NCBI GenBank assembly: GCA_964410905.1
Contig: CAYPIR010000007.1
Coordinates: 11,773 to 75,772 of the forward strand
DNA length: 64,000 bases
Reading direction: 5' to 3'
DNA from: an uncultured bacterium
GTDB taxonomy: Bacteria; Omnitrophota; Omnitrophia; Omnitrophales; Aquincolibacteriaceae
Part shown: piece by piece, positions 16,304-59,689 of the stretch
Numbering within the stretch: the first letter of the stretch is position 1
How the letters are laid out: the number at the start of each line of letters is the position of its first letter
Notes under the pieces: model-generated
Told to the model about the DNA's origin: nothing
Databases searched by the model: none
What the model saw: only the letters and a program-made list of their open reading frames with translations
Translations under genes and position numbers: made by a program

Positions 16304-16305
16304 AA

Positions 16306-20611: not shown

Positions 20612-20616
20612 GACAA

Positions 20617-26415: not shown

Positions 26416-26564
26416 TGTCTGGGCATGTTCTTAGCCAAGCTTTAAATATAAATCCGTTCTTAAATGACGGAATCCCTCAAAAGTTTCCACGAGAAAAATT
26501 TTAATATTGTACGAATGTTTTTAAACCTCCTAGAGCCATCGTGCCAATAACGAGATAGTTTAGA

Positions 26565-27419
26565 ATGACCGATTTTGTATGGCAAAAAGACGCGTTTGAA
26601 AGTTGGGACAAAACGGAGATTGCTTATCGTGTTTGTTTAAATCACAAGGCTAAGCATAGCGTTATTTTAGTCCATGGTTTTGGCGAACACGGCGGACGTT
26701 ATTATAAGTTTCTGTCTCATATGAAAGAGCCGGAAACAAAAGAACTTTTAGCGCAACTGGCGATTATGGATTTACGCGGTATGGGCGAATCGGCTGGAAA
26801 ACGCGGCGACGTAAAATGCTTTAATGATTATCTTGAGGACATTTCCGCATTTGTTAAACACTTACAAAAGGCACACTTTTTCCCATCTAAAATAATTATT
26901 TTGGGGCATAGTCTTGGCGGCTTGATCGCATTTGATTGGGCAAGGCTAAATCCTGATTTAGTAAAACTGCTCATTTTGTCTTCACCTTTTATTGGAATGA
27001 AATATGGCGGAATCATTCGGTGGATGAATAATATTGTTTGCCGAATAAAGCCTGATTTTTTATACAAAAATTTTGTTCGCGCTGGAGATTTGAGCCGAAG
27101 CCACGAAGTTAAGGCTAGTTATCGAACAGATCCGCTTATTGTTCGGAAAATGACCTCAAGACTATTGTATGAAATTTTGAATAAACAAAAACTGATAGAC
27201 AAAATGTCGATTTTATCGACTGCGTTTCCGATCCATTTGTTGATGCCGGCTGAAGACAGAACTTTGGATATAAAAAAAACCGCGAGATTTTTTGATAGGC
27301 TTGCAATGTCCTTAAAGAGGAAAACGGTATTTGAAGGTTCGTTTCATGAGATTTTTAACGATTACAATGAGCAAAAAACTTTTAATGTTTTAAAGACAAT
27401 TATTGGGGAATGTGTATAA
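26565..27419 (+). CDS. Alpha/beta-hydrolase lysophospholipase / monoacylglycerol lipase.
   Basis: HGFGEHGGRY and GHSLGG nucleophile elbow. Hydrolase_4-like layout. Confidence 0.7.
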   Translation: MTDFVWQKDAFESWDKTEIAYRVCLNHKAKHSVILVHGFGEHGGRYYKFLSHMKEPETKELLAQLAIMDLRGMGESAGKRGDVKCFNDYLEDISAFVKHLQKAHFFPSKIIILGHSLGGLIAFDWARLNPDLVKLLILSSPFIGMKYGGIIRWMNNIVCRIKPDFLYKNFVRAGDLSRSHEVKASYRTDPLIVRKMTSRLLYEILNKQKLIDKMSILSTAFPIHLLMPAEDRTLDIKKTARFFDRLAMSLKRKTVFEGSFHEIFNDYNEQKTFNVLKTIIGECV

Positions 27420-36034: not shown

Positions 36035-39000
36035 ATGATTAACGCTCAGACAGGAAAATTGAAATCTTGGATTAGAACAATCGCATTTTTTACCGTATTT
36101 ATTTTTACATTTACAAGCGTTGTTTGGGACGGCGGAATAAATAAAGCCTACGCAGCCGCGGCCCAGCCGAGACTTGATTCTCGAGTTTCTACCACAGTTC
36201 TTACTTCCATAATCGACCGCTCTGATCTTCCCGAAACATACGGAACCATAAAAAATTCATATCGCGGAGCAGGCGACCAAGTTTTCATTCACGTTCAAGA
36301 CGCACATATCAACGAAGAGGCACAGCTTAATATCGCTAATATTCTCAAATGGTTTTCTGAAAAACACCAAATGAGGCTTGTTAACATCGAAGGCGCGGAA
36401 GGCGAACTTAACGCTAAGACGCTTACTGCTATTTCTGACAAAGCGGCAAGAAAAGATGTCTCGGGATATTTTTTGCGTGAAGGCAGAATGGCTGGAGCGG
36501 ATTATTTTGCAATCGTTGATAAGCCGGAGCTGACCCTTTACGGAGCGGAAGACAATGAGCTTTATGAAGAAAACCGTAAGGCATATGTCAACGCGCTTGA
36601 ATTTAAAGATAAAGACGAAAAAGTTTTGTCTTCTTTGCGTTCTATTATGGAGAAGGTTGGGAGATTCATTTTTTCTGACGAAGCGCGTGAACTTTATCGC
36701 CGTCGTGTCGACTTTCAAGACGGCGGAGCGCAGCTAGTTGCTTATGTTCGTTACCTTGTTAGCATTGCAGAAAAAAATCAAATGGACTTGTCCGCATACA
36801 GCGGAATGAAATCTCTTCTGCAGCTTGTAGATCTCGAAAAGAAGGTTAATTTTGACAAAGCCGAAAGCGAAGTCGATAGATTAGTTGAACATCTCAAGAA
36901 AACTTTGCAAAGCGACAAACTTTCTCGATTTCTCACCAATACCGTTCATTTCCGAATGAAGAGAATGAATCGTGCTGATTACTATTCATATCTTCAAAGC
37001 GAAATTGACGGACTTATCGATGCCGAGACTGTCAAAACGCAATATTTAAATGCCATCGCCTACATTGAATATATGAAACTTTATGATTTAATCGGCATTG
37101 CAATTTTTGATGAAATTGAATTTTTGGAGAGAACCATAAAAGCAAAAATTCTCACGACTCCCGAAGCCCAAAAATTAGACCAGCTTTATCGAGTTTGGGA
37201 CATTATGCAAAAAATGTTCGACTTTTCGCTTACAAAACAAGATGCCGAATATTTTTACTCCAACCAAACCGCGTTTTCCTCTAACAATTTTGTGGAATTT
37301 CTTACCCCGTTGATGAAGGAACATCGTTTTTCTGATTCTATACCGGCAAACGCTTCGATTTTGGATACCGATTTATCAAAGGTTGAAAAGTTTTATCAAC
37401 TCGCGCTTGAGCGTGATATCGTAATTATTGAACGCGCGATTGAAAAGACAATGAGGAGCGGGCAAAAAGTCTCCGCGATTGTAACCGGTGGATTTCACAC
37501 ACCAGGGATTGAAGCCGCGCTTAAAGAAAAAGGGTTTTCATATTTAGTTGTTACGCCAAGAATTTCCAAGTCGATTGATCAGAAAAAAGAAAGCAAACTT
37601 TATGACGAAGCGCTCCGTCAAACTCCGCTTCCTATAGAAAAAGTTTTGTCTGAAACTCTTACTTTGCAATCGGGGACGGTAAACGATCCACGGTTTCAAC
37701 TTTCAGCGAAGCATTTTCTTGATGTTCCAGAAATGGTTGATCAAGCCGCGACTTTGATGGCGGCTAAATCTATTTTGAATGCTGTGGCGGAGGGTAAGTC
37801 GCCGGCGGCTCGCCTTGAGGAATTGCGTAGAACCGCAGCCGACGCGAACTCGCCCAAATTGATGAAAATTTTAAATTCTTTCGAAGTGGGGACGATTAAC
37901 GGAAAACAAGTTCCTGTGTATCCAAACATAAACGGAACATATTTGGCATTTTTCTCTGAAACAACTAAGCCTTCCGAGGTGTCTCCTAAATATCGTTCTT
38001 CAATTCAAAATCTAAAATTGTCGGACGATAGTTTTCTCTCTATGCGTGTTGTTGCTCCCGAACAAATTTCTGGGATTAGCCGTTCCGAAACGCGCCAGTT
38101 GACTGATGGGACTTCAGCTCTGAAATTGGATGCGTTTGAAGCTGAGGGCATTAAAGTTGAAGCGGGAAAAATTGAACGGGGAGTATTTCAAAAGGAGCTT
38201 ATTGCTAAATCCGGTTATGCGGGCTATGGATTTGTTGTCCCGGATTTGACGCGGGCAAGCGACAAGGCTTTAAGAGATATTTCCGCGGCATTTTCCGATT
38301 CTAAAATAAATGACAAATTGAAAGCGGTGAGTTCTGCTTTTTCAGAAGCAGGCGTAGACCCTATTGCTGTAAGTTCTCAGGCGGTGTTGAGACTTCTTAG
38401 TGAGAATACAGCCGATGAAATTGCTCAAAAGGTCAGCCTTTTGCGTTTATTAAATCGCTCAATAACTACTTCCAATGTTGGTTATTCTGTTGAAAAATTG
38501 CAGGAACTTGCGGCTGAAGCGCAAGCCCAAAAACAAGCAGCCCAAGAAACAGCGGTTGCCGAACTCGCCAAGACTAAAGTTGAAGTGCCAACAGTAGCGG
38601 GTGGCGTTTCTGCTGAAATGATTGAACAGCGCATAAATGCGTTTCTTGGTAAATACAAAACAAGAAATGTAAATGGTAAGGAAATTGAAAACAGCGAAAA
38701 AGTTTTAAATATTATGCGCCTAGCACTTCGTGGAATTTTTGCTGACCCCAAAAACAGTGAAAATAATGCGGCTGCTAATAGTGTTTTTACGCGTTTTGAA
38801 GAACAAATTAAAGTCGCGAGAGATATAACTGAGGAAAGTCTTAATCAAGTTACTATGGGTGCTGGTAAAACAACTATTTTGCAGCTGGGTTTGCAATATC
38901 TCTACGACAAGGGATTTAAACAATCTGAGGGCAAAGGGGTAGTGCTTGTAACTGCTAATGACAAGTTGTCTGAACGCGATGCCGAAAAATCGGCAGCAAT

Positions 39001-42000
39001 GTTTGGCGGACAAGGGATAATTGTCGGTTCTGTTTCAAAAGATGAAAGCGGTAAACCAATTGGCCATATTTACGACTTAAAAACGAAAACTTTTAAGACA
39101 ACAACAGCCGAAGATGTCTATAAGAATACTGACTTTATTTTTGGTTCAATGGAGACATTTCAATTCAGAGCTATAGAAGAAAGAAAAGCGCTTAATGAAA
39201 AAGATAGAATTTTTACTTCGCGCGAGTTTGCCCATCTTCTCGATGAAGCGGACGCTCAATTGGATAATAACAATCCTGCCATTATTTCTGGCGGGATAAA
39301 AGAAGATGCTGAGGAAATAAGGGCAAGAACAATTAAAGCAAATGCTTTTGTCAAAGGAATATTCTTTTCTGGCGTAAATGACGGTTTTGTTGATGTGTCT
39401 GAAGCTAAAAACCAGTCGCGTTCTGTCAAGCTAACCGAAAAAGGCGTGGCTAAGCTGCGGGCGTCCTTCCCAAATCTATCTGAAAGTGAGTTTGATCTTT
39501 TAAAGGAATCCGTCAACACTTCTTTGACCGTATATTTTGCCTATGAAGAAGGAGTGGATTATGTTGTAAAAACGACAACGGCCGCGACCGAAGATGGTAA
39601 AGCATCTAAAAAAGTGGAAATTGTTCTTTTGTCTGAAGGACAAGAACGACCCGGAACACGATTGCAAGGCGGATTGCATTCTGCTATTGAAGCAAAACAC
39701 ATGCAGAGTGAGTCTGATGTTCAATTGGAGCATGATATAGAAGGGTCCATAACTGTGCCGGAGTATCTTTCACTTCCGCATGTAAAGGGTTGGGGAGGCG
39801 TGAGCGGAACTTATGACAAGCCGCAAATGGAAGCGAAATATGGGAAAGTTGTTAAAGAATCAGCATTAAAAAGTAAACGCGGCGAAGAAGGGGCAATATT
39901 TGCTACGGAACAAGAAAAAACGGATGCGTTTTTGGCAGACGCGCTTGCGCGGCATAGAGCCGGGCATCCAATTATCATCAAGGTTGCTGAAGGTAAGACG
40001 GCAGAAACCGCAAAACAAATCAGAGATTATTTCGCTAAAAATGGTGAAAAAGTTGATGAGGAAGCAGTTGGAATATTTGACGCGACATCAAGAACTGATT
40101 TGAAAGAGTTTGAGGCAACAGCAGGAAAAAAAGGCGCTATTTCCGTTGTAACACAGATTGGCGCGCGCGGCGTTGACGTTAAGGTTGAAAATGGCAAAAC
40201 TATAGAGGAAATGCTAGATGAAGCGATTGATAAGGTTCAAGCCGAAATAACCAGGCAAAATCTTGTTTTTACTGGATACGCGCTTTATATCGATGACAAG
40301 GAAGCGTTGGATATTCAGTTCAGAGGCCGCGTTGGACGCGCTAATGACGAAGGTCTTTTTAGAGCGTTTTGGTCAGCGGATGACCCCATTTTTAATAAGT
40401 ATAAGGAATTAGCCGGCGTTCAAGCCGTTTTAGCTGATATTAAAAATGCGTTGCGAAGCGGTAAGACACTGACTTCAGAACAAGCGTTTAAACTGATTTC
40501 TACTCTCCAAACCGCCGTTTCAGATCAAGAAATTTCTTCGTGGAAATCGAATAAATTGTTTGGAGAAGAAAAAAACGCCCGGCTAAAAGAATTCACTGCT
40601 ATTAGAGAAGCTATTTTAAAAGGCGAATTTAATTCTCCAATCGTTCAAAATATTTTCCCTGGTTTGTCTGAATTCGCGGCTAGTCTTAACGACGCGAATA
40701 AAGAAAAACTTAGAATCGGACTATTGAAATTGATGGATAAGGCGTGGAGCAAGTATGAAACCAAATCAGAAGAATCTCGCGTTGCTTTGACAAGAATTTT
40801 GCAAAGCGGCTGGCAAGGCGTTGCGGCGCAAAAAGACGCTGTGGAGAGTTTTCAAAAAGTAATGCGCGGAGTTTATCAGGGAATTGTTCTTGAACTTCAA
40901 AAGCAAATCGCTGGGATATCTGCTGAAAGCAGATCCGAAGCGGAAGAAGTAATCAGACGAATTGATTTTGCTGCTAGATGGAAGTCGTTTGGGAACAAAC
41001 TTCTTGCTTATGTGTATGGCGGAGCCGTGGTTGGTGCTGTCGCTGTAGTTATTGCCAAAGTTATGGCTTTTGTGAGCGTGACAGGAAAAATTGGCGGAGG
41101 AGCGGCCGCGTTGGCAAGTTTAACTGATACGCTTGCTCCCGTAATGAACTTGCTTCCCGGATGGGCTTGGATTGGCATCGCGCTTTTTGCGGCGATGGGG
41201 ACATTTGCTATTGCTCAAACACTGCTTAAGCGGTTTCAGCAGAGTTATCGCGGCACTAAAAACATTGCTCTTTTGCTTAGCGGGCAAGCGGTTTCTGAAG
41301 AACGCGCTTCAGCCGGGCTGTCTGTGCTTGTTCAACCTCTTACAATGATTGTTTCGATAACTCCGATTGGAGTTGTCTTAACAGGCGTAGCCGCTATTGC
41401 CGCGCCCGCCTTAGCGCCCTTGCTTTGGACTATTGCGGCTATTTCCGCGGTTGCGGCACTTGTCGCGGCAGGTTTGATTGTGGCTGTGAATTATTCTAAA
41501 CACATAAAAGATGCCGCAAGACCTACAGATACAGCCATGGGAAGAATTGGTCGCGCGTCCTTTGTCGGATTAGCTTTGATGACCGGACTAGTGACAGTTT
41601 TTAAACCGATAATTTTAACCGGCGCGGCCGCAAGTTTTACAACGATTTTTGGCGCTGTCGCGATACTCGCTGTAATAGCATTTTCTGGTTATTGGGTGAT
41701 GAAAGGTTTTGACTCTGCTTACGGAAAGGAATTTGCGGGGCTTCAACATAATATAAAATTAAATCAGATAGGCGCTGCTGTAGGCGTATCTTTGGCCATC
41801 TTCGCGGGGGCGATAGCGTTTGCTGTTGGTTCTACCGCGATAGCTTTGACTGTTTTGATGTCGCTGGGCTCCATTTTGTTTGCCGCTGTGAGTATTCTTC
41901 AAATTATTGCCGCTCCCGGAATTACTAAAAAAATAGCAGAACAAAAATCTGCGGCCAAAGGCGAACGATTCGGTAAGAGAGATGCTTTCGGAGAACTTTT

Positions 42001-45000
42001 TGAATTTGTGGTGGTTAACGCGCGTTCTATTATTCTTGGATTAGGCGGCATTGTAGGTCTTGTTTTTACTGCTACTAATCTTGCTTTGCCAATAACATTG
42101 GCATACACAGGCTTAGCGGGCGCGGCGGCGACTGTTGTTACCGCTGCTGGCGTAACATTGATATTGGCAGTTGTAATTTCGCTGGTTTTTATGGGAATAG
42201 CCAAATATAGAAACGGTTTGCTTGAAAGAAAAGCAAAAGGCGAAATTTTTACGAATAAAATTGAAAAAGTTTTTTCTACGGACAGCAAAAAAATTGTTGG
42301 AGTCGTTTTAGGATTGGTTGGAATTTCAGCCGCCATGCCATCACTTGCGGCGGGCGCGCAATATGTTCAGCAGTCTGCGACGGCTGAATACACATCTGTT
42401 ACAACAACTTCTGAGTCGGCTTCAGTTACGGAACAATATCTCGAGACTGGGAAAACCTCTTTACCTCAGGGGATTACGGTTTCTGTTGCTGAAAAGACAG
42501 TTGCTCAAAAACCTGTAACGGCATCGCAATTAGAAGATACTGAAAAAAAAGCAGAAACACCGGTTGTTGCCGCTCCTGCTCATGATGTTTCAAAAGATGT
42601 TGTCGCGCCGCCTCCGCCTCGAGAAGATTTTACGATAACTATGGACAAAACTTCGTTTGGACCGGCTGGCATTGCTTGGAAGGTTAGCCGCGATGGAACG
42701 ACTGCGGCAGATAATGAAGAAAATTTGATTGAAGCCGTTCGGAATGCTGAAAAAGATGCCTCTATCGCGAGCGCTCAAGCGGATTTAAATGCATTTATTT
42801 ACAGAGTTGTTCAGGCTTTTGATACTGGAGCGCAAGGAAAATCTGAGGAAGATCAAAAAAGAATAACAAACGCAAAGGCCGAATTTTTAGAAGAAGCCAC
42901 AAATGGATTAGCCCAAGTTAGTGAAAACCCGCTTGATTTGAACGATGTGGTAGCAAATTTAGATGCGCTTTCTCATCGGCTTTTTGATTTGGCAGGATTG
43001 GATAGAGACGACGCGAGAATTCGCCAAAGTATTGCGGAAGACCAAGCTCAAACACGCGCTGAACTAATGGAAGACGCGTTAAGACTTTCTGAGTCTCAAG
43101 CGGAGAAAGACGCAGCGGTTGCTGTTGAAGAGCCTGTTGTGATGACAGAGGCGCTGGCCGCGGCATGGGAGGATTATGAAAAATTCAAAGCGGATACAAT
43201 AGAAAATCTTATTAACACTGAGGATGCCGAACGATTGAATGCATTTAACGATCGCGCTGACGAACTAGAAAAAAATGTTGTAACCGTAGAAGATCTTCAT
43301 CTTGCACAGTTGGAACTTGACCAAATAGCGACCATTTTTGAAGACGCTGGTGGAGATGTTATTGGCGAAGCTGCAAGCGGTGCTGGAGATGGCGCTGGAA
43401 CGCCGCCTCCTCCTCCAACATCTGAATACGGACCGGTCGTGCCGCTTCTTGCTGATATGCTTCCTGTTACTGTTCCACGACCTGCGGCTGAAGGCTCTGC
43501 TGCCGGAACAGCTGGCGCTGCGGCAGGCGCTGCAAGGGTTGTAGCCGATAAGCTTGTCCAAGTTGACGCTAAAAGAGTTGCCAAAGATGTGTCAGTAAGC
43601 GGACCTGTTGCGTTTTCTAAGGAAATTATTAGAAGAACTATCGCGGGCGATCAGCTGCATGAGCCTATGGGACTCTCGGTTGCGACAATCTTGTTTGCCG
43701 AAGACCATCAAGCACCACATGTAATTGCTATGGCTCAAGAGGCGGAAAATTACAAGGATTACTCAGAAGATTATAAATCTTGGGGAACATTTCTAACCGC
43801 TGGCGTTCGTTCGGTTTTGACAAAACATGAAGAAACAAAAACTTACAAAACCCAAACTATCGAAAAAGGCGAAAGGCTTGTTGATATTGATGACGAATAC
43901 GACTTCGGGCTAGGGCTTACAGAATTAGAAACATATAGTTATATGAAGACGAATGTAAGCAGCGTAACTTCTAAGGTCGAAGAACCATTTGTTGCTTCCG
44001 CGTCTGCCGGCATAAAAACAGGCAGCGCTGAGATTAAAGAAGATAAACTTAAAAAACTGCAGGTCGAACAAACGCGGTTGAGCGCGAAGCATGCTTATAT
44101 TGAACAGCAAATGGATAAACTTTTTCATATGGTTGAAATTGTTACCGCTAACCGCTCCCTTGAAACCATACAAGAAAATGAAAAACTTCTTCGTGAGCTA
44201 AAACGAAAGCAAGAAAAATTAAGCGGCATAAGCGCGGAGGTGAAGGCTCGCAGTAAATCTCTTGATGTGGCGCTTGATGGCTTAGAGGTTGCGAAGAATG
44301 ATATTGCAAAAGAGCGCGACAGGCATGCCGCTCATATAGCCTATTTATCAGGCCGCGCGGACATCAGCAATTCCGAAGATTTTATGAAATTTGTTAATGG
44401 TCTGACTTTTAAGAAAATTGAAGAAGATATTTCCGGCAGCCATTTGCCTACAGATATGGCGAGAGTTGTTGTGCAATCGGCACGCAATTATGTTTTGATG
44501 CGCGTTGCTGAACAAGACAAAATAGCAGGGTTAAGTTGGCAATTAACTACGCCGGAAATAGGCGTAAGTTACGGCTCTGAATACGGGTGGAACTTGCGTG
44601 CCAATTTGTTTACATTTGACGCGCAATGGTCATATAGAGATTTTCAAAAAAACAAAGCAAAAATTTTTAAATCCGAAGCGGCTGCGGCAGATGTTTTGAG
44701 CCGCTTGCTTGATGAGGTGGAAAAGGCGCAGCTTGATCGCAGCCGGATTGATGATGTCCGAAAATCAATAGAAGAATTGAAGGCTCAAAAGGATGCTCAG
44801 CAAGCAATAGTTGAGAGCCTTTTTTCTGATCCTACCGGAAAGTCTATTCGGGATGAAGATTCTAATGCGGCACTAGTAAAATTGTTGAAAATACAAAGAC
44901 TTTTAATAGCGGCGGAAGGCGACGCGTATCAAAGAAATGTTGCCGCACAAGAACTTGATACTGTTATCCGCAATGTATCACAAGCCATAAACGAATTGTC

Positions 45001-54000: not shown

Positions 54001-57000
54001 CTCAAAAGGTGAAGAGTCTTTGGCGAAAATTGTTCGTGGCGCGCTTATTGTCGGCACTGCTTTTTCGCTGTATGGTTTATTGGCGACGCTTATTAGGGGA
54101 AGAGTTTTTGCTGCACCTAAGTTATCAGGTTATTCAAAAGCAGAGAATGATAAGTCAAAACGTGGGGGGGCTGGAACTTCTGGTGACGCTGGTGCGAGCG
54201 GTGCCGGCGGTGATGGAGAAGGGAAAAAGCCTGTTTGGAAACAGGACCAGTCTGATAAAAATATTAAATTAATCAAAACTGGCGCGATTTTAGGTGTTGT
54301 CAGAATTTATCTCTTTAAATTTTTGCAATACTCTGCTGTTGCTGGACTTCTGCTTTTGGGGTTGGCAGTTATGCCGGCGACCGTTGGAACTTTTTCAATT
54401 TTATTTCAAATTATGTATTTGCTTATTCATTGGCAATTATTTGAACAAGCGATGTATGCATTTTTGGCATATGCATTTAGTTGGACAAGAGTATTTGCCG
54501 TTGTAGGTGTTTTGGGATCCATTTTTGTTGGAATTAGTTTTGCGCTAGGTTTGCCATGGTTGTCGGCTTTTGGAGCGATTTTAATGGCAAATCCTATTAC
54601 GGTGAGTTTGATACTAGTTTGGGTTGGTTTTTTTGCACTTGTTATGTTCTTAGGCTCTTCTAGGATGCCTTCGTCTGGCGTTCATTGGGCAAGTTTCGAT
54701 AAGTATATTAAAAACGCTCAAGATATAGAGCGGCTCTTTAGACCTGAACTTAATGATGAAAGAACTAAATTGGCGGAAGAAATGAAAGCCCAGATGGATA
54801 AAGTTGGTAAAGCGACTGACGAAACGGATAAAACTGAAGCCCAAAATAAACTAAAGGAACTTATTAGCAAGTTTAAAGAGATTACTCCATCGTTAGATAT
54901 GAATGATTTTCTCGGAGAAAACGAGAGAATTGATGCCGATCAATATGTTACAGACTTCGCACAGTCAAAACCAAATTTATCAGTTGATGAATTAGACGGA
55001 TTAATGTTGGCGCAAATCTTGACTTTAGCTTACAATAATTTTAAGCAAAAAAAATCTATTATATATTTTATGGACGACCTGATTTTGCAATATGTTAAAG
55101 CGGAAAATAGCGTGTCGGCAGAAATTACAGGAGATGAACGAACGCAGGCTGTAAAAGAAAAACTTAGAGAAATAATTAGTGCGGTCGTTAAGGGGGATAA
55201 GGCGTTTAAGAATAAGTCGGAAGAAGATCAAAAAAAGGTAATAGAAGCGCGTTTTAAACAAATTACGTCTTGGGTTGAAAGGATTAAAATTTGGCAAAAA
55301 ATGGCAGATGATGTTTTGACTTATGAAAACGGTGCGGAGAAGATAAATGGCAGCGATCGTCTCATAGTGTCTTTTTCTGGCGCAGGAGGTATGAGAAAAC
55401 CGGTAGGGAATGTTTTAGGGATTAACCAATTTACGGGTTATGGCGAAGATGGAACGCCGGGAAAATATTGGGGACAAATATCTAATGGAGGTGAGTTAGA
55501 TCCTGCAATGCTTGCTTGGCAGCCTTCTCATGATGGAAAACGTTTGCATGTTTATGGCCCAATGTATATTACGGACGTGCTGTTAAAGGCCGCAAAAGGT
55601 CAAACTCTTTCTGGTGTCGAAAAAAGTTTTATTGAAGAAGTTAAACTAGCAAAAGGACTTACTGACGAAGATTTGACGAAAATTGTCCCCGTTACAACAC
55701 ATGATAATGAACCGTTCTTTACAGGGGTTATGAAGGCGGATGGTTTTGTTGCTTATGATAGCTATGTTGCGCACGAAAGACCTGAAAACGATAAGACGGG
55801 ACTTGCGGTATTGCTACCGAAGAAATCAGATTCTGGAGAAATGATACCGCGAGTTATTTATTCGACAACTCTTGACTCAGGAAACTTTGTCAATGTTGGA
55901 ATGGATCTTTTGATGTATAAAGCGATGATCGAAAGACCTGATGCTGGAATGTTTCAAATGAACACTGGATATGTAACAGATAAATCAGACGTTCATTATG
56001 AAGAAAAAATAATATCACATCAATCTGGATTTGGGACGCAAATTTCTAACGGAAAAATTGCTGGGCAAATACGTGCGTTCGGTAAATATTCAATCAGAAC
56101 GGGTTTTGGGCGCGAATTTGGTCGTCCGCGTCCGGGCGTTCCAATGGGTTCGTATTTTTCACGCGTTATGCTTTATAGCGGAATCTTGCCTGAAATTGTA
56201 GAGACTTTCAGTGAAACAGAAACGAATATGAATATGGATGACTACAGAAAAGCCGTTTATGGAAAAATGAACGGCGGAGGCGGCTGGGTTGTTATAGTTA
56301 ACGGAGAAGACGAAATTGTAACCAATACTGCATCTGATATGTATGTTATCGCAAAGGCTATTTCTGATGAAAATGTTCTAAAACGATTGAGAGAAAAGGA
56401 TAATGTCTTGGGGCGAATGTATTTTGGACTAAAAACGCCGGTTATAGATGATGCCGCTGTTGAGCTTTTGGAGCCTGATATTTGGGAAAATCTTGCTAAG
56501 GGCGGAAATCCAATGCCTATGGGCAAGCCAGTTCTTTTAATGTGTAAAGACCGTGCGGGTATTATTGATGATACGGATTTTAATATGATTGCGGAAGACG
56601 GCAAGGCTGCAAAGTGGGGAATTATAAATGATGAAATTACGGATATTTTTAGAAATCGAGGCGGATTTGCCTTGACACCTCAGACGCGATTTTTTAACGA
56701 TCTCCCTAAAATTTCCTTGACCGTTGAAAAAAAATGGATGCAATCACTTTTGTGGTGGGCTGCTATGGGGTGCGTTCCGGGTCTCGGCGGGATTACCGGA
56801 GTTCTTGGTGCGTTGCTCTTGACAGCGATTGTGTTAGGGACGTTGATGTCTGCGCCGTTTATTGGAATTTTGCAATATTATTGGGCAAAGACAGTCAATG
56901 TTGTTAAGGAGCCGGGTAAGGCATTTAAAACGTATATTTTGGAGCCGATAGTTGATATTTTGGGAATGTTTGGAGAAAAATTTGGCAATAGCGGTCCTGA

Positions 57001-59689
57001 ATATGTTTCAAGTGCGCTTAAGCAGATACCTGTAATTATCATTGAGTTGCTTCAAATAATAAGCGGATCTGTATTGTTTAATTTTATTTATAATTTAGGC
57101 TCTTTGTCCTCTTCTAAGAGCAAATGGCGTAAATTTTTTGATAAAGTTGAACCTTTAAAACATGGACTAATTGGACTTTTTATTAAAACCCCTGTTCAAA
57201 AACGTGAAATGGATTTTGAACGTGAAAGGCTTGTTGCCCCGGCTCCTCCGGCGGGTATCCCAGAACAAAAAACGAAAGCCTATAAAGACTATTTGGATAA
57301 CCAAACAACAAGACATGGTCTTGCTTTAGGTTATTCCTTTTTGATTTTGTTTTTGACTCAACTGGGAATAGCGATACCTTTTTGGAGTATTGTTCTTCCT
57401 GTTGTCTACTTTACCATGATTTTGCCGGGTTTTTATGGAAGTAAAATTCATAGTGAGTTTGCACGAACTGTTATTTCAAAAGATGGTTATGATGTAAGCA
57501 AAGAAAGATTTAAACCATCGGAGGAAAATGTGGAGCACAATTATCGATACTTTGCTGAAAAATATAGGGCTTATGCAAATCATGTTATTTTTTCATCGTT
57601 ATTGGTTGTGCTTGTTGGATTTTTTGCTTCCGACCTTGCGTTGTTTTTAAATCCTGCATTTGTCTTTTTATCAACTATTTTGGCGTTGTATGGTTTTGGC
57701 CGTCCTTTTGTGTCGCAATGGACTGGAACAATATTTAAGACTAGAGCTGTTGCGCGGACGGCTTTGGCTGTGGAAGGGACGCTTATAATAGTGCTTTTCT
57801 TGAGTGCTATTTACATACCTTTGTTTAATGTTATTTTTCAAAAAATATTTGGTATGGCTTTGGCTAAATCGGCATTTTTGGGCGGGTCGGGATATTTTAT
57901 GGAAGGTATGAAGGGTTTCTTTGGGCTTGCTTCTGCTGGTTTTAGCCATTGGTGGATGGCGATACAATCTGCTTCTTTGTTGGGAACTTTGAGTGCTATA
58001 GGCTTGGGCGTTATCTCATCTGTTGCAAGATTTTTAGGATTTGAATATTCCGAAGATGCTGGGAGAGAAACGTGGAGTAAAAGGCTAACAGGAAATTGGG
58101 AAAAACTTTTTAAAGCGATAAAAGGTCCTTGGAGTAAAAAAACCAGAGCGCAGTTTTGGAAAAATTTTAAAGATAATTTGATTATGTATTTTAAAGCATT
58201 TGGTGCTACTGTAGGCAATAGTCGGGCGAGGAGTTTTAAGAAAATAGACGGTAAAAAGATTGAAAAGAAAACTCCTCCAACACCTATAGCGCCAGCGCCC
58301 TCGGCGGGAGAGCCTATTGCTGTGCCAGCTGAGCAAACGGAAACTCCAACGTCTGCGGAAACACCTGCTGTGCCAGCAGAGCAAACGAATACTCAGGCAG
58401 AGCCTAAACGAACAACAACTATGCAACCAACTCCAACGCCTGCGCCGATGGAAGAAAAAGCCGAACCGGCTTATGCACCTGCTCCAGCTACATCCGAAGA
58501 CGCAGAGACTACATCGACTAAATTAGAAACGCCAATTTCTCTAACCCCTGCACCAGTTGCTCCAGAAGCCCCCGAGGAGACATCGTCGGATGAGGCTGTT
58601 CAGTCGCCGGATTTGATGAATCCATTAACTCTCCCAGAAGCTTCTTTCGGAACAGATCGAAGGATTTTGACTAGATTAAATAATGCTAGATATAAAGTTG
58701 AAGCGACTACGGGCAGCAATGCCGAGATATATGGAGCCGGTGGGAGTTTTGTTGGAGTTAGGTCTAAAATTATCGCTGGCGGTAATTCTACTTTGACCTT
58801 CAGTATTGGAAATCCGTTGTCAAAGCCGCAATACTCGGTTGCGTTAGAACTCGGGTATGTTTATTTGCGACAGGAATTGACTCTTTCAGTGATTTTTACT
58901 GATGAGGGTGGTGAGACTTATTCTCGCGATATTAAAACAACAGCCTCAGCGGGAGAACGCATTTATACGTTTGAGCCTACTTTGAAGAATGTCGCATCGA
59001 TTACAATTGTTAACAAAACCGAAGGTGATTCAGCTTATGCTATCAGATTCGCCGGTGGAATTGCTGGTAATGCGCGAAGTGAATTGAGAGAAACTAAATC
59101 AGCACGTGAAAAAGAGCTTGAGCGTGCGCTTAATTCGACTCGTGCTATGGATTTGGAAATCAAATATAATGAAATTTTGTCTTTGGCAAAAGCTGATGAG
59201 ATCGAACGCTCGCTGACCGGTTGGGCGACTAACGAAAAGATTCTTGTTTCGCTGGGCTTACCGTCAACTTTTATTAGAACGAACAATATAAAGATTTTCG
59301 ATGGATTTAACACGGAAAAGTTGGAAGCGTATTTATCGAGCGCTAGTAGAGATGTGCGGGTTATAGTTGCTAACGCCAGCCTTGAAGATGTGGAGATTGC
59401 TAATGCCATATTCGCAAAGTTTGGCATTCCTAAGGGCTATGGCGTGGCAACATCTGATTCTGTTGAGACAGTTATGACTAAACGCGCTTTGAATGTTGCG
59501 AACGCAATTCAAATTAGGGATACGGCTTCGCTCCCTGCGGGTGTTTACGCCAAGTTGCTGGCAGAGATACCGGGCTTGGTGGTTGTGTCAGACAATAATG
59601 TGGGAATTGCAAGCGCGAATCAAATTAGCGCCGTAGAAGTTATTGTCGCCGCGTTCGAGGCTCAACAAGCGGTTGCGATCGCTGCGTAA
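36035..59689 (+). CDS. Giant 7,884-aa multidomain envelope protein. It contains an N-terminal signal/TM segment, a SecA-like ATPase core and three multi-TM clusters. It also has a ~4,000-aa alpha-helical region with TolC/OEP-like segments, a Pro/Thr-rich linker and a beta-rich C-terminal domain.
   Basis: 23,655 nt with no in-frame stop. All overlapping antisense ORFs are short. A rho-independent terminator follows at 59726-59757. The domain evidence is given in the sub-features. Confidence 0.85.
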   Translation: MINAQTGKLKSWIRTIAFFTVFIFTFTSVVWDGGINKAYAAAAQPRLDSRVSTTVLTSIIDRSDLPETYGTIKNSYRGAGDQVFIHVQDAHINEEAQLNIANILKWFSEKHQMRLVNIEGAEGELNAKTLTAISDKAARKDVSGYFLREGRMAGADYFAIVDKPELTLYGAEDNELYEENRKAYVNALEFKDKDEKVLSSLRSIMEKVGRFIFSDEARELYRRRVDFQDGGAQLVAYVRYLVSIAEKNQMDLSAYSGMKSLLQLVDLEKKVNFDKAESEVDRLVEHLKKTLQSDKLSRFLTNTVHFRMKRMNRADYYSYLQSEIDGLIDAETVKTQYLNAIAYIEYMKLYDLIGIAIFDEIEFLERTIKAKILTTPEAQKLDQLYRVWDIMQKMFDFSLTKQDAEYFYSNQTAFSSNNFVEFLTPLMKEHRFSDSIPANASILDTDLSKVEKFYQLALERDIVIIERAIEKTMRSGQKVSAIVTGGFHTPGIEAALKEKGFSYLVVTPRISKSIDQKKESKLYDEALRQTPLPIEKVLSETLTLQSGTVNDPRFQLSAKHFLDVPEMVDQAATLMAAKSILNAVAEGKSPAARLEELRRTAADANSPKLMKILNSFEVGTINGKQVPVYPNINGTYLAFFSETTKPSEVSPKYRSSIQNLKLSDDSFLSMRVVAPEQISGISRSETRQLTDGTSALKLDAFEAEGIKVEAGKIERGVFQKELIAKSGYAGYGFVVPDLTRASDKALRDISAAFSDSKINDKLKAVSSAFSEAGVDPIAVSSQAVLRLLSENTADEIAQKVSLLRLLNRSITTSNVGYSVEKLQELAAEAQAQKQAAQETAVAELAKTKVEVPTVAGGVSAEMIEQRINAFLGKYKTRNVNGKEIENSEKVLNIMRLALRGIFADPKNSENNAAANSVFTRFEEQIKVARDITEESLNQVTMGAGKTTILQLGLQYLYDKGFKQSEGKGVVLVTANDKLSERDAEKSAAMFGGQGIIVGSVSKDESGKPIGHIYDLKTKTFKTTTAEDVYKNTDFIFGSMETFQFRAIEERKALNEKDRIFTSREFAHLLDEADAQLDNNNPAIISGGIKEDAEEIRARTIKANAFVKGIFFSGVNDGFVDVSEAKNQSRSVKLTEKGVAKLRASFPNLSESEFDLLKESVNTSLTVYFAYEEGVDYVVKTTTAATEDGKASKKVEIVLLSEGQERPGTRLQGGLHSAIEAKHMQSESDVQLEHDIEGSITVPEYLSLPHVKGWGGVSGTYDKPQMEAKYGKVVKESALKSKRGEEGAIFATEQEKTDAFLADALARHRAGHPIIIKVAEGKTAETAKQIRDYFAKNGEKVDEEAVGIFDATSRTDLKEFEATAGKKGAISVVTQIGARGVDVKVENGKTIEEMLDEAIDKVQAEITRQNLVFTGYALYIDDKEALDIQFRGRVGRANDEGLFRAFWSADDPIFNKYKELAGVQAVLADIKNALRSGKTLTSEQAFKLISTLQTAVSDQEISSWKSNKLFGEEKNARLKEFTAIREAILKGEFNSPIVQNIFPGLSEFAASLNDANKEKLRIGLLKLMDKAWSKYETKSEESRVALTRILQSGWQGVAAQKDAVESFQKVMRGVYQGIVLELQKQIAGISAESRSEAEEVIRRIDFAARWKSFGNKLLAYVYGGAVVGAVAVVIAKVMAFVSVTGKIGGGAAALASLTDTLAPVMNLLPGWAWIGIALFAAMGTFAIAQTLLKRFQQSYRGTKNIALLLSGQAVSEERASAGLSVLVQPLTMIVSITPIGVVLTGVAAIAAPALAPLLWTIAAISAVAALVAAGLIVAVNYSKHIKDAARPTDTAMGRIGRASFVGLALMTGLVTVFKPIILTGAAASFTTIFGAVAILAVIAFSGYWVMKGFDSAYGKEFAGLQHNIKLNQIGAAVGVSLAIFAGAIAFAVGSTAIALTVLMSLGSILFAAVSILQIIAAPGITKKIAEQKSAAKGERFGKRDAFGELFEFVVVNARSIILGLGGIVGLVFTATNLALPITLAYTGLAGAAATVVTAAGVTLILAVVISLVFMGIAKYRNGLLERKAKGEIFTNKIEKVFSTDSKKIVGVVLGLVGISAAMPSLAAGAQYVQQSATAEYTSVTTTSESASVTEQYLETGKTSLPQGITVSVAEKTVAQKPVTASQLEDTEKKAETPVVAAPAHDVSKDVVAPPPPREDFTITMDKTSFGPAGIAWKVSRDGTTAADNEENLIEAVRNAEKDASIASAQADLNAFIYRVVQAFDTGAQGKSEEDQKRITNAKAEFLEEATNGLAQVSENPLDLNDVVANLDALSHRLFDLAGLDRDDARIRQSIAEDQAQTRAELMEDALRLSESQAEKDAAVAVEEPVVMTEALAAAWEDYEKFKADTIENLINTEDAERLNAFNDRADELEKNVVTVEDLHLAQLELDQIATIFEDAGGDVIGEAASGAGDGAGTPPPPPTSEYGPVVPLLADMLPVTVPRPAAEGSAAGTAGAAAGAARVVADKLVQVDAKRVAKDVSVSGPVAFSKEIIRRTIAGDQLHEPMGLSVATILFAEDHQAPHVIAMAQEAENYKDYSEDYKSWGTFLTAGVRSVLTKHEETKTYKTQTIEKGERLVDIDDEYDFGLGLTELETYSYMKTNVSSVTSKVEEPFVASASAGIKTGSAEIKEDKLKKLQVEQTRLSAKHAYIEQQMDKLFHMVEIVTANRSLETIQENEKLLRELKRKQEKLSGISAEVKARSKSLDVALDGLEVAKNDIAKERDRHAAHIAYLSGRADISNSEDFMKFVNGLTFKKIEEDISGSHLPTDMARVVVQSARNYVLMRVAEQDKIAGLSWQLTTPEIGVSYGSEYGWNLRANLFTFDAQWSYRDFQKNKAKIFKSEAAAADVLSRLLDEVEKAQLDRSRIDDVRKSIEELKAQKDAQQAIVESLFSDPTGKSIRDEDSNAALVKLLKIQRLLIAAEGDAYQRNVAAQELDTVIRNVSQAINELSVKFPKVAKQLDVKAKLERLQEAARQTAKERNLELAQTADALYRKYKDLDNRVHIDAFVDGLLAGNTRIAAGQFASIARRADYVRSEYFRVFGYANAGVSVSLSDTGVKTKTTNIGLGFDIPILDWTRSSEAISKEAAQRASVLTKTDVDMRLHFQTNELLRRIANLTEERQRVEEKIANEESKSKKIEEGIEIRAKEVTDGSDLSQQSKLARQAARLSLLEAQRELAALDENRNAAVMMLRHLTDTHLDSDNVAVLSKEAELKLDDSNYVESLGKFQNPAFGFLSLDGKITQEAVPTIKKMLSVTHSLMSEMTKKLNGLKRANPNYEQKLKELEEERKSLDAEAEQLLKEKPQQKDFENKKDFNKAEKAWEAKRSSYAEKLAKNNKNKLPLSAIRDLEKTLSQFQSAERDLNELSLSPDGDQTDAVRGMLINILNASDSYVTSDYLLHKFFTLGAYDSRDAFYEEIRTLLGIIADKTAVRGIVGRIAANEEAFVKIEEAWNVLKSPLTISLGATFQATWGGNSGTSVSGSFGGVLSHLFYAPASYLGLTSDTRNQIAGELLREGARNVLKTAEAHQKEDVAVRNVQKRIGVLSSRVKLYERLRDEFTKMQTEVARKNKTMGFANLVRKLFLNNRVSEENLNLKVLEYQIRIEKDQASIDALKDELRDTLNNTSEVEGSAGFQEGAAEFAVTEQSIKNQLEELGAQSPEQRLATLDSIVSANTANLSIGGGARFSNAISSAGSSFNRDLGVFYQKLDADSGTPGASGNRYFAMNIDVLSFAGNRSETFALLMVHDESERGTLSREKQAQIQAQALELLRAVYHARVANNVYREISKSAIGIHALERVLNLSRAENAMKAMAASALGNVREIEALETVSSQIARLMAELGLADSDSALKNKEFLSRLNGLVAAAGDDITAESEKLTKLAAELGVNFDLIEGLDLSKTILEENKLTPATYRALLREEIARQFVKTLKNSRFQFTARGGFRQPTRVSDFSAAEPLVEFGVSAIIHDSNVAAAEKFHTKWIEIEKIKSVQAKLKDNKTWKDIARDIKYLSQEIEQRLKTVKDAEELYRIEGGIGRQFGYDDAPNDVVFVYMNELLAYKAAVDSYMSAVQRANSFLIEQGIKVDDTQTSPSSAKVKDMIPAWISDKISFFDTGVEEKYEAGNGLNVDLSTAKVSANTELIIDTRVDESENARVETLYPDISGATAELLKAMGLAPLDGNANSEEKADREDLQIIAQNILGRVAANYGKKDANAWVAEITETYNKLSENKFWDKSEFASQNHRTLGEEVFGNLFRAAFFETGRVNKLLRNANIDLDKLAFAAFLASLDGASATRLSPDERAAFRDAILRDLPAARKALQEDKKNKTGVFRWDAVQFSEILSLAIFHVSDTEAKKMSFEDILKNDEYRRDIFEISPEINFNNVSNAILGFNRGDDSRTTGWEELAAFLAIAQGKYDPNTKTVSRKILDVANPETMANVLAEVGIAKAKDDTTAYLIARMRHNLEKFTNLDPTKDELGETTYNRLVKLVEDEANDLLDKAGVSKDDIKRRRDTVEKMQIEALRFAKAAAYVNNILYGTGFEAGIDRNEWLAKSLDERVSLTEKNMEVSNGLISRGIKNHIGMDKSLTPREQKQAEAIVNGLISSMAFEIMGETGKDIGREGIKRIEELKKEAKELEKKIKEKTLSSSATTATSSVSTATEDGSVETSTLPTTSVTESSSDVDALMARLEQVREKISDFEKNRAKARADYETFRNLPSADRETRLIELQKEMNAIQPRVEKMLGRKLNLGEAADIAILRAQAEMILGDVQSKFMEGGAFGDDEEAWDEWRELTVEKRRQIFTKELDSAAKLKSELQGIGVSFNLSDRDEAGNKMPVEERGEDLGVLLSLAKSVLSDKLSNIGTVFTKDGEIVQGKEGLAWAILTATRDADVQKAADEFLNKTYPRYNTLTPVEKRGRIFSAIEETLADHATSKELSDLDREKSELADLIKSKLLGRVALYEKTGSATVFDRKSFDELKEATTVTDLTETTWKNLLYSISNLPKKSTDTVIAQVEHFGRVDLAKNLSFGDKLNQKPDFWLSDSERTRLIREFKTLSDRNKSSADVLAWATELLKMSLFNGKTVADVNRYAEEMEEVRNFLQAAYKLYSGADLPLGDLSAFANDVITAEMDVRQEQERNNARLGRKLTEAEKLSQQLEVFAVRYRYGHKLKLYGLAEAAYEGREVASNPYKNKNDRVSQIIYWLNYFGKINQGDKWQEVNADWVRQHHNGWSKQQIVGKIERILAEQYEGAPLFELTPESAVNQLYQDVQDEAIMDSVIYITQKHFLSNEKLSALVFAEREGKESIPHFKITNNVMTYAYDVVPFLHSLEDGAWNVSGGYANYLLLKYATQQIWDPDLRALEKPVQVNGKDLVVSVNGIDTPVNLSDLNNVWTSYLSVFRSVSILQEPINEMDSNKVLSSLWFVQQIKQLESDLKAKEAAGEEIAVAVNEFMTGVKRAESVFYQFSKDEDKKKDFINNWAKDFLVDRERRAGQKFERYDLVKIDAEIKHGRKENANKYAADALEKHSQEGIRNAAFIRPMVEIVKKEAKRGFEYEIGKEDAKIIAEKMVDEGWAARELLLLEKVIVPALTEGSSLTIEVRGDIYNVAEILLQKTESEELLKLRGSNPKATIENISLQTLKASIEKRIELYKKVIDLKKIITEQFVKFQVYSNDEKMFKNEIVRISTDAIERGFQTESLRRWFETAETLNMLNPKVDILQTLFVADGLLQLGLATQPREKIIEKHTDAEIAEKINETLGWIFAVSDNTQPMYSLGGKSRTDYENELTLEKYIKNYDSKTRQQIKEDLYARVTSMIKNGSLSFADLENLKKLTIERVAFLVKGDTERKSDTFSAYDLPQPHQVAPLTILSVLDNSAGEPSKRIGILNIIFSSHRGEVKGASWLRFNDFRDPSRLSEQVAGQTGAMVRREFVKLVDIYDPVDAGFQSWFGKNFQKISEASGFSKNSKGEESLAKIVRGALIVGTAFSLYGLLATLIRGRVFAAPKLSGYSKAENDKSKRGGAGTSGDAGASGAGGDGEGKKPVWKQDQSDKNIKLIKTGAILGVVRIYLFKFLQYSAVAGLLLLGLAVMPATVGTFSILFQIMYLLIHWQLFEQAMYAFLAYAFSWTRVFAVVGVLGSIFVGISFALGLPWLSAFGAILMANPITVSLILVWVGFFALVMFLGSSRMPSSGVHWASFDKYIKNAQDIERLFRPELNDERTKLAEEMKAQMDKVGKATDETDKTEAQNKLKELISKFKEITPSLDMNDFLGENERIDADQYVTDFAQSKPNLSVDELDGLMLAQILTLAYNNFKQKKSIIYFMDDLILQYVKAENSVSAEITGDERTQAVKEKLREIISAVVKGDKAFKNKSEEDQKKVIEARFKQITSWVERIKIWQKMADDVLTYENGAEKINGSDRLIVSFSGAGGMRKPVGNVLGINQFTGYGEDGTPGKYWGQISNGGELDPAMLAWQPSHDGKRLHVYGPMYITDVLLKAAKGQTLSGVEKSFIEEVKLAKGLTDEDLTKIVPVTTHDNEPFFTGVMKADGFVAYDSYVAHERPENDKTGLAVLLPKKSDSGEMIPRVIYSTTLDSGNFVNVGMDLLMYKAMIERPDAGMFQMNTGYVTDKSDVHYEEKIISHQSGFGTQISNGKIAGQIRAFGKYSIRTGFGREFGRPRPGVPMGSYFSRVMLYSGILPEIVETFSETETNMNMDDYRKAVYGKMNGGGGWVVIVNGEDEIVTNTASDMYVIAKAISDENVLKRLREKDNVLGRMYFGLKTPVIDDAAVELLEPDIWENLAKGGNPMPMGKPVLLMCKDRAGIIDDTDFNMIAEDGKAAKWGIINDEITDIFRNRGGFALTPQTRFFNDLPKISLTVEKKWMQSLLWWAAMGCVPGLGGITGVLGALLLTAIVLGTLMSAPFIGILQYYWAKTVNVVKEPGKAFKTYILEPIVDILGMFGEKFGNSGPEYVSSALKQIPVIIIELLQIISGSVLFNFIYNLGSLSSSKSKWRKFFDKVEPLKHGLIGLFIKTPVQKREMDFERERLVAPAPPAGIPEQKTKAYKDYLDNQTTRHGLALGYSFLILFLTQLGIAIPFWSIVLPVVYFTMILPGFYGSKIHSEFARTVISKDGYDVSKERFKPSEENVEHNYRYFAEKYRAYANHVIFSSLLVVLVGFFASDLALFLNPAFVFLSTILALYGFGRPFVSQWTGTIFKTRAVARTALAVEGTLIIVLFLSAIYIPLFNVIFQKIFGMALAKSAFLGGSGYFMEGMKGFFGLASAGFSHWWMAIQSASLLGTLSAIGLGVISSVARFLGFEYSEDAGRETWSKRLTGNWEKLFKAIKGPWSKKTRAQFWKNFKDNLIMYFKAFGATVGNSRARSFKKIDGKKIEKKTPPTPIAPAPSAGEPIAVPAEQTETPTSAETPAVPAEQTNTQAEPKRTTTMQPTPTPAPMEEKAEPAYAPAPATSEDAETTSTKLETPISLTPAPVAPEAPEETSSDEAVQSPDLMNPLTLPEASFGTDRRILTRLNNARYKVEATTGSNAEIYGAGGSFVGVRSKIIAGGNSTLTFSIGNPLSKPQYSVALELGYVYLRQELTLSVIFTDEGGETYSRDIKTTASAGERIYTFEPTLKNVASITIVNKTEGDSAYAIRFAGGIAGNARSELRETKSAREKELERALNSTRAMDLEIKYNEILSLAKADEIERSLTGWATNEKILVSLGLPSTFIRTNNIKIFDGFNTEKLEAYLSSASRDVRVIVANASLEDVEIANAIFAKFGIPKGYGVATSDSVETVMTKRALNVANAIQIRDTASLPAGVYAKLLAEIPGLVVVSDNNVGIASANQISAVEVIVAAFEAQQAVAIAA
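38600..40960 (+). other. SecA-like translocase ATPase core (NBD1, PPXD-like insert, NBD2, helical scaffold) embedded in the giant protein.
   Basis: MGAGKTT (SecA: MRTGEGKT). KGVVLVTANDKLSERDAE (SecA: KGVHVVTVNDYLAQRDAE). LLDEADAQLDNNNPAIISG (SecA: [21 protein letters not shown]). EEGVDYVVK...GQERPGTRLQGGLHSAIEAKH (SecA PPXD: [40 protein letters not shown]). TQIGARGVDVK (SecA: TNMAGRGTDI). GRVGRANDEGLFRAFWSADDPIF (SecA: [23 protein letters not shown]). GWQGVAAQKDAVESF (SecA HSD: GYAQKDPKQEY). Confidence 0.8.
41000..42370 (+). other. Polytopic membrane domain (about 10-12 predicted TM helices) immediately C-terminal to the SecA-like core.
   Basis: A continuous run of 18-25-residue hydrophobic segments rich in A/G/V/I/L, separated by short polar loops. 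Confidence 0.6.
44550..46950 (+). other. Alpha-helical region with TolC/OEP-like (outer-membrane-factor-like) repeat segments. Tentative.
   Basis: Gly/Ser/aromatic strand-like segments (GVSYGSEYGWNLRANLFTFDAQWSYRDF; GLGFDIPILDWTRS; TFQATWGGNSGTSVSGSFGGV). Each is followed by long helices with OEP-like text such as GSDLSQQSKLARQAARLSLLEAQRELAALDENRNAAV. Confidence 0.3.
54020..54670 (+). other. Second multi-TM cluster (~6 helices), preceded by a Gly-rich acidic loop.
   Basis: Hydrophobic helices LIVGTAFSLYGLLATLI, AILGVVRIYLFKFLQYSAVAGLLLLGLAV, VFAVVGVLGSIFVGISFALGL and others. Confidence 0.55.
55350..56720 (+). other. Unassigned ~450-aa globular Gly-rich, non-helical domain between TM clusters 2 and 3.
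   Basis: Composition shifts sharply from coiled-coil to a G/P/aromatic-rich sequence (FSGAGGMRKP..., GFGREFGRPRPGVPMGSYF..., NGGGGWVVIVNGEDE...). I recognise no family signature. Confidence 0.4.
56735..58050 (+). other. Third multi-TM cluster (~10 helices).
   Basis: WMQSLLWWAAMGCVPGLGGITGVLGALLLTAIVLGTLM ... through SASLLGTLSAIGLGVISSVARFLGF. Confidence 0.55.
58265..58630 (+). repeat. Low-complexity Pro/Thr/Ala/Glu-rich linker with an imperfect ~27-nt direct repeat (AVPAEQTETP / AVPAEQTNTQ).
   Basis: TGCTGTGCCAGCTGAGCAAACGGAAACTCC at 58319-58348 against TGCTGTGCCAGCAGAGCAAACGAATACTCA at 58367-58396. Translation reads PTPIAPAPSAGEPIAVPAEQTETPTSAETPAVPAEQTNTQAEP... Confidence 0.6.
58650..59689 (+). 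other. Beta-rich C-terminal domain of unknown function, ending in a hydrophobic Ala/Val-rich tail.
   Basis: Alternating polar/hydrophobic strand-like pattern (TLTFSIGNPL..VALELGYVYLRQELTLSVIFTDEGGETYSRDIKTTAS..ITIVNKTEGDSAYAIRFAGG). The terminus is ...VEVIVAAFEAQQAVAIAA. Confidence 0.4.

Follow-up and report, generated by a model that had tools for sequence, protein, structure and literature searches.

A SecA-like motor joined to an eleven-helix membrane domain near the N-terminus of a 7,884-residue protein

The DNA analyzed here, referred to as the window, is a stretch of 64,000 nucleotides on contig CAYPIR010000007.1 (assembly GCA_964410905.1, positions 11,773–75,772, forward strand). It contains a giant open reading frame (ORF), in which a divergent SecA-like ATPase is followed directly by a dense series of transmembrane (TM) helices. 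Window positions 41000–42370, which lie in this series, correspond to residues 1656–2112 of the 7,884-residue product. The ORF and its parts are listed below by window position, where N-in and C-out denote an N-terminus on the cytoplasmic side and a C-terminus on the outer side of the membrane.

36035–59689, forward strand: giant ORF of 7,884 residues, a single uninterrupted frame that holds all the parts below
36068–36127, forward strand: N-terminal hydrophobic helix (residues 12–31) followed by an A-x-A motif, resembling a signal peptide or signal anchor
36155–37702, forward strand: conserved N-terminal domain (residues ~41–556), the best-conserved part of the protein
38489–40657, forward strand: divergent SecA core (residues 819–1541) with NBD1, PPXD, NBD2 and the long scaffold helix
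40658–40954, forward strand: helical linker (residues 1542–1640) weakly similar to the two-helix-finger region in the second half of the SecA scaffold, with the wing domain absent
40997–42355, forward strand: TM block 1 (residues 1655–2107) of about 11 helices, as five hairpins and an exit helix, predicted N-in and C-out
41228–41314, forward strand: cytoplasmic loop past TM2 (residues 1732–1760) with the motif KRFxQSYRGxxNxxLxxxG, the most conserved part of the block
42293–42355, forward strand: TM11 (residues 2087–2107), a putative in-to-out helix that would open a long extracytoplasmic segment
42356–54028, forward strand: long TM-free segment (residues 2108–5998) starting with S/T/P-rich linkers, probably located outside as judged from the flanking topology
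54029–54667, forward strand: TM block 2 (residues 5999–6211), from hydropathy
56735–58027, forward strand: TM block 3 (residues 6901–7331), from hydropathy

Three Pfam matches of the SecA type were obtained for the giant ORF, all exceeding their gathering scores: SecA_DEAD (PF07517; residues 819–1247, E = 1e-11), the preprotein cross-linking domain SecA_PP_bind (PF01043; residues 1124–1219, E = 3.3e-8) and P-loop_SecA (PF21090; residues 1284–1457, E = 1.5e-8). Among the NCBIfam models, SecA was matched over residues 938–1541 (E = 5e-34; 117 bits against a cut-off of 862) and secA2 with E = 5e-27 (94 bits against a cut-off of 930). SecA chains of the PDB were matched down to E = 5e-20, and a word-indexed protein search with the SecA part returned canonical SecAs only, at 24–26% identity. 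The core carries a Walker A motif (MGAGKT), a DEAD box (LDEAD), motif III (GVSGTYD), and the NBD2 motifs ARGVDV and FRGRVGR, the last two of which align with canonical SecA. Since these ATPase motifs are present, and since Walker A, the DEAD box, motif III, motif VI and the arginine-finger region are intact or largely conserved across the four related sequences described below, the SecA-like core is likely to be an active ATPase. Beyond the SecA-type matches, nothing else in the giant ORF was recognized by Pfam or NCBIfam, and the domain search gave no glycosyltransferase, glycosyl hydrolase, methyltransferase, NUDIX, dockerin or C39 match.

The C-terminal side of the motor was compared with a profile of 60 canonical SecAs by hhalign. 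Residues 1371–1531 aligned with the end of NBD2 and the long scaffold helix at a probability of 97%, and approximately 95 residues of the SecA wing domain found no counterpart. When the wing-domain columns were deleted from the SecA profile, the alignment reached approximately residue 1635, with the score rising by only about 4 (from 92.8 to 97–98). This extension spans the region “LLxxiDxxWxxHL ... QKDP”, which is the two-helix finger in SecA and gave an E-value of 0.22 when aligned by itself; retention of a two-helix finger in the window protein is therefore possible. Neither the scaffold/wing family PF07516 nor the SEC-C tail (PF02810) was matched in the giant ORF, and the chain runs straight into the 11 TM helices. 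The first of them starts at residue 1655, about 20 residues past the last SecA-scaffold-like helix. An earlier interpretation of this DNA, made from the letters and hereafter called the sequence-only reading, had placed the end of the scaffold homology at about residue 1640 and the beginning of the helices some 15 residues later, which is approximately right given the end at ~1635 obtained from the weak alignment.

Hydropathy was evaluated on the Kyte–Doolittle scale with 19-residue windows and a threshold of ≥1.6. Residues 1655–2108 gave 160 windows at or above this threshold with a maximum of 2.69, while none was found in the 1,623 residues ahead of it (residues 32–1654; maximum 1.32) or in the 3,890 residues behind it (residues 2109–5998; maximum 1.40). 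The block consists of uncharged runs of 19–64 residues with a mean hydropathy of 1.2–2.2, which are split by loops rich in lysine and arginine (K/R). Eleven helices were counted, with a fair range of 10–12, as the sequence-only reading had held for a SecA-like core and a membrane domain in one polypeptide. The high contents of Ala (18.5%) and Gly (10.8%), together with the low confidence of the helices modeled by AlphaFold, could be taken to indicate an amphipathic or coiled-coil region, or a low-complexity artefact, instead of a membrane domain. This idea is effectively refuted by the length and hydropathy of the uncharged runs, by an acidic (D+E) content of 3.5% compared with 13.7% in the whole protein, and by an alternation of K/R-rich and nearly charge-free loops that is kept in four sequences. 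Residues 1655–2107 are thus a genuine polytopic membrane domain, which forms one conserved cassette with the SecA-like motor.

The relatives of this domain were searched for with residues 1640–2130 by exhaustive HMMER against 1.84 billion representative proteins, which yielded only three (E = 4e-21, 6e-13 and 9e-7). By this search, the TM block constitutes an orphan family of four members. A word-indexed search with the TM domain alone or with the four-sequence alignment gave no match, which is uninformative, as its 8,000 candidates fill with unrelated membrane proteins, so that negatives of this kind are unreliable for TM domains. In genome scans, single-sequence peptide patterns found nothing, while a motif from the alignment, taken in the loop past TM2, recovered the loci L001–L003. 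One relative (P0122) covers part of a gene that encodes at least 2,971 residues at the end of contig DAOSLF010000001.1 (locus L002, whose protein is called L002p) in a Candidatus Omnitrophota metagenome-assembled genome (MAG). A frameshifted gene on JAPLMF010000026.1, also from a Candidatus Omnitrophota MAG, supplies the second relative (P0121) as its second piece. The third (P0123; GCA_015231405.1) is annotated as 1,483 residues, with a frameshift before its start and an in-frame run of N at its end, and the gene continues for at least 2,046 residues. P0123 was considered as a free-standing motor-plus-TM protein, and this was rejected because its ends are the run of N and the frameshift, so that it too belongs to a giant gene. 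The homologous giant genes at L003 (positions 2616–16408) and L004 (positions 7455–20631), from two MAGs, are annotated as 2–3 separate genes: at L003 two ORFs overlap in different frames, and at L004 the gene is interrupted both by a frameshift and by a run of N in frame. The corresponding database “proteins” of 1,000–2,700 residues are fragments.

All three relatives are collinear with window residues ~924–2128 at 26–32% identity (BLASTP, E = 1e-90 to 1e-124), and the order of SecA-like core, helical linker and TM block is the same in all four genes. The conservation of the fusion in homologous giant genes, for which the sequence-only reading had asked, is thereby established. A phmmer comparison of the window protein with L002p detected two conserved stretches (residues 5–558 and 921–2152), and nothing detectably conserved with the relatives was found downstream of the TM block. 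Because conservation stops after the TM block, the conserved unit is an N-terminal cassette of approximately 2,100 residues to which variable sequence is attached. This cassette comprises the signal-like helix, the conserved N-terminal domain, the SecA-like ATPase and the 11-helix block.

Within the block, the cytoplasmic loops are the best-conserved parts. The loop past TM2 (residues 1732–1760) shows a mean pairwise identity of 42% with invariant F, Y, L and G, compared with 33–40% for the proline-containing TM3–TM4 hairpin, ~36% for the last cytoplasmic loop with TM11, and 27% for the helices overall. These data also bear on the idea that the block is simply the first of three TM clusters stitching the chain across the membrane, and has no functional tie to the SecA-like domain. 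Two further TM blocks do exist in this protein, unrelated in sequence to the first; published surveys give many TM helices for each Omnitrophota giant protein; and a block found in just 3 other representatives among 1.84 billion proteins is no widespread partner of SecA-like domains. Against this, the block lies directly after the SecA-like domain and is collinear with it in four relatives in which the downstream sequence has diverged beyond recognition, and from one helix to the next its loops keep their lengths and charge pattern. We hence regard an incidental cluster as unlikely.

The topology of the block was assessed by counting loop charges for the eleven placed helices in the four-sequence alignment. 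The flank ahead of TM1 holds 4 K/R in three of the four sequences and 1 K/R in L002p, and the predicted cytoplasmic loops, which are every second loop, hold 3–9 K/R in all four. Among the five predicted outside loops between helices, none of which exceeds 37 residues, four are 5–15 residues long in the window protein and contain no D/E and one K/R in 16 loop-by-sequence cells. The remaining one, which is the first, has 27–37 residues and few charges. According to the positive-inside rule, this pattern places the SecA-like domain in the cytoplasm, with helices 1–10 arranged as five hairpins and helix 11 leaving the cytoplasm. An N-in/C-out topology with a positive-inside pattern common to the four relatives is therefore predicted for TM block 1. 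On the far side of the long segment, the first helix of TM block 2 (residues 5999–6021) is followed by a strongly K/R-rich loop; this loop, the S/T/P-rich start of the segment and the absence of TM helices for 3,890 residues all fit a location of residues 2108–5998 outside. This segment also contains no Pfam domain. In the L003 protein orfA, the insert contains additional TM segments.

The sequence-only reading had described the protein as a motor fused in cis to its own membrane module, serving as a channel or an anchor. The fusion is real and collinear in four genes, and the anchor half agrees with the conserved positive-inside topology and with the loss of the SecA wing domain and C-terminal tail. 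For the channel half no support was obtained. With E-values of up to 10 allowed, a profile of the four-sequence TM block found 0 matches in the whole set of PDB chain sequences, and Pfam at the same limit returned noise only, with no SecY (PF00344), YidC, SecDF, MFS or RND; no sequence-level link of the block to these families can therefore be drawn. The five hairpins are not repeats of one another (hhalign probabilities ≤2%), no invariant charged residue occurs inside the helices across the four-sequence alignment, and the outside loops are short and nearly free of charge. The proposal of small-residue-packed channel helices did not hold beyond amino acid composition, as small-xxx-small motifs numbered 51 compared with 54.9 ± 5.0 in shuffled sequences, giving no enrichment. 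AlphaFold2 models of residues 1640–2130 reached a mean predicted local distance difference test score (pLDDT) of 50 and a predicted TM-score (pTM) of 0.28 from the single sequence, and 42 and 0.34, respectively, from the four-row alignment. A Foldseek search of the PDB with the low-confidence single-sequence model gave noise (best E = 1.9, TM-scores ≤0.14), which reflects an inadequate model and implies no difference in fold.

We also consider it improbable that ten of the helices form a channel for proteins below the fused motor, with a single chain serving as SecA plus SecY and passing the giant protein or another substrate. Several features would suit such a self-contained translocon: the 10 + 1 helices starting N-in, the longer and moderately hydrophobic first outside loop, the distance of only about 20 residues between the scaffold-like end of the motor and TM1, the conserved cytoplasmic loops, the proline-rich TM3–TM4 hairpin, and the conservation of the cassette as a unit. 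They are outweighed in our view by the lack of any match to SecY, to other channels or to insertases in Pfam and the PDB sequences, the absence of a two-fold internal repeat of the SecY kind and of an invariant intrahelical charge, and the fact that the helices, at 27% identity, rank with the least conserved portions of the cassette. The stronger version, in which the motor and the ten-helix bundle are an autonomous translocon with a new membrane fold that threads its own chain independently of SecYEG, is improbable as well.

The explanation that we prefer, with a probability of roughly 0.5, is that the TM block anchors the motor and sets the topology of the chain, and that the tethered motor exports its own downstream loop of ~3,900 residues in cis through SecYEG. 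In membrane association, the block would stand in for the wing domain and C-terminal tail of SecA, which are missing, and it would hold the motor on the cytoplasmic face. Helices 1–10 would bring the chain back to the cytoplasm, and helix 11 could then act as an internal signal anchor starting the export of the next ~3,900 residues, up to the TM helix at residue 5999. Having been translated and inserted first, the tethered motor would drive this long loop through the housekeeping SecYEG. The conserved cytoplasmic loops at residues 1732–1760 and 2057–2086 are candidate contacts for the motor or SecY. Membrane proteins with large periplasmic loops depend on SecA for the translocation of these loops. 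A similar indication comes from the abstract of PMC9192764. Because the motor would be made and inserted first, and because large loops need SecA, cis export through SecYEG is the most economical interpretation.

Several observations weigh against this interpretation. The hydrophobicity of TM11 is clear in the window protein and L002p, marginal in P0121 and low in P0123, which makes the C-out end less certain in the latter two; in P0123 another TM helix lies ~190 residues beyond the weak TM11. The N-terminal helix (residues 12–31) is flanked by K/R on the N-terminal side, with a conserved A-x-A about 9 residues past its end (residues 12–42 as a whole; window positions 36068–36160), and it is kept in the L002 homologue. 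With its A-x-A motif it is predicted N-in, which would put residues 41–1654, including the ATPase, outside, as there is no TM helix between residues 32 and 1654 in the window protein or L002p. An outside ATPase conflicts with the K/R-rich flank of TM1. In addition, the similarity to the two-helix finger is weak, the window contains no secY or secA gene, and a family of four members makes for thin conservation statistics. Both the action of the motor on its own chain and its docking on SecYEG are putative.

The surroundings of the giant gene were also inspected. The flanking genes are of the housekeeping type (LepA, LepB, TrpAB, Rpe, NadE, ArgRS, MiaA, a PGI-like gene and an amidase), and Rfam and tRNA scans of the window found tRNA-Ala only. 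No type II secretion system (T2SS) genes or carbohydrate import genes are present in the window, no SecY2 or Asp genes were seen, and no conserved partner gene was seen near the giant gene. Synteny with L002 is loose. There, positions 790–4214 encode an alpha/beta hydrolase (39% identity) and a homologue of a 200-residue ORF directly upstream of the giant gene; their window counterparts (positions 25813–27419) are separated from the giant gene by tRNA-Ala, NadE, ArgRS, MiaA, the PGI-like gene and a LysM amidase. The arrangement has a bearing on the idea that the tethered motor works in trans, exporting or inserting other proteins such as neighboring long secreted ones rather than its own downstream segment. 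Retention of the preprotein-binding domain PPXD would allow for this, and a long ORF with a signal peptide does begin 860 bases downstream. We consider it an improbable scenario all the same, as the neighborhood is housekeeping and loosely syntenic without a conserved partner, and the ~3,900-residue loop lying directly downstream in cis is the simpler substrate.

The long downstream ORF (positions 60549–64000, forward strand) encodes at least 1,150 residues with a signal-peptide-like N-terminus, begins ~860 bases past the giant gene after a small KTSC-domain ORF, and runs off the window end. At the other end, a very long ORF (positions 1–6102, forward strand; at least 2,033 residues) enters at the window start, with several methyltransferase-type matches, a calcineurin-like phosphoesterase match, and no TM helix in the part seen. 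A cyclic-nucleotide-binding domain fused to a patatin-like phospholipase (positions 23745–25733, forward strand; 662 residues) is unrelated to the TM block.

Regarding the other parts of the giant protein, the N-terminal domain (residues ~41–556) is 55.6% identical to that of L002p (BLASTP; phmmer E = 5e-202) and is also present in the L003 protein orfA (phmmer E = 7e-67), and it has no Pfam match. It carries motifs such as VFIHVQDAH..EAQ, NIEGAEGE and TGGFH, which may point to a Tiki/TraB/ChaN-type fold. No homology to TM block 1 was found for TM blocks 2 and 3, which are separated from each other by a segment of ~690 residues without a Pfam match.

Canonical SecA is a soluble, peripheral protein. 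The window motor shares NBD1, PPXD, NBD2, the long scaffold helix and the ATPase motifs with canonical SecA as seen in complex with SecYEG (PDB IDs: 3DIN and 5EUL), and possibly a remnant of the two-helix finger. It differs in its low identity (~24–26%), in lacking the wing domain, the C-terminal linker and the zinc finger, and in being covalently joined to ~11 TM helices that have no SecY similarity. A likeness to the SecA2/SecY2 systems can be seen in that both have a second, divergent SecA-type motor, devoted to an exceptional substrate that is very large or otherwise unusual. The motor and the channel of SecA2 systems are separate proteins, and the secA2 score of the window protein (94 against 930) is far under the family cut-off. 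An ATPase motor held in the membrane by TM helices of its own chain is known from HlyB (an ATP-binding cassette type I exporter), EccC of the type VII secretion system, and FtsK. This analogy extends to the design principle only, as the ATPase folds and TM architectures are unrelated and no sequence relationship is expected.

The closest comparison is with the giant proteins of Omnitrophota. According to West-Roberts et al. (2023; 10.1101/2023.11.21.568195), the giant genes of Omnitrophota, where full-length, code for many TM regions and for SecA DEAD/PPXD domains that are mostly divergent; these authors proposed the TM regions adjoining the SecA-like domain as its anchor. Nielsen & Lui (2026; 10.64898/2026.06.07.730766) described a cluster of 20 proteins with a SecA_DEAD-only (PF07517) architecture among long Omnitrophota proteins. 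The concept of SecA with adjacent TM helices is accordingly already in print. The window protein resembles the SecA giants of West-Roberts et al. in having SecA_DEAD and PPXD, no Pfam scaffold/wing match and many TM helices, and two of its three related genes lie in Candidatus Omnitrophota MAGs. In contrast to that class of >30,000 residues, it has 7,884 residues, carries no glycosyl-hydrolase, methyltransferase, dockerin or C39 domain, has no T2SS genes in its window, and bears a TM block belonging to an orphan family. The order of parts is also different: here the motor comes ahead of the TM block, both within the first quarter of the protein, whereas for one Dockerin-type sequence, and “as seen in Archaeovorins”, West-Roberts et al. 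described TM anchors that precede SecA domains close to the C-terminus. What the window protein adds is a much shorter example (7.9 thousand residues) with the motor-then-TM order near the N-terminus and a conserved, predicted N-in/C-out topology of 11 helices. It also adds the retention of the long scaffold helix, and possibly the finger, while the wing domain alone is lost, and the orphan TM family of four members.

As to how chains of thousands to >100,000 residues are inserted and exported, the main clue to date is the SecA-like domain that recurs in the giant proteins of Omnitrophota. The window protein provides a small, tractable example, in which the cassette is conserved and the downstream “payload” varies. 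If the block is an anchor only, the present analysis adds topology detail to an already published concept. If the motor does export its own chain, this would constitute a cis-acting variant of Sec-dependent export, which could be tested with a construct of ~1,300 residues.

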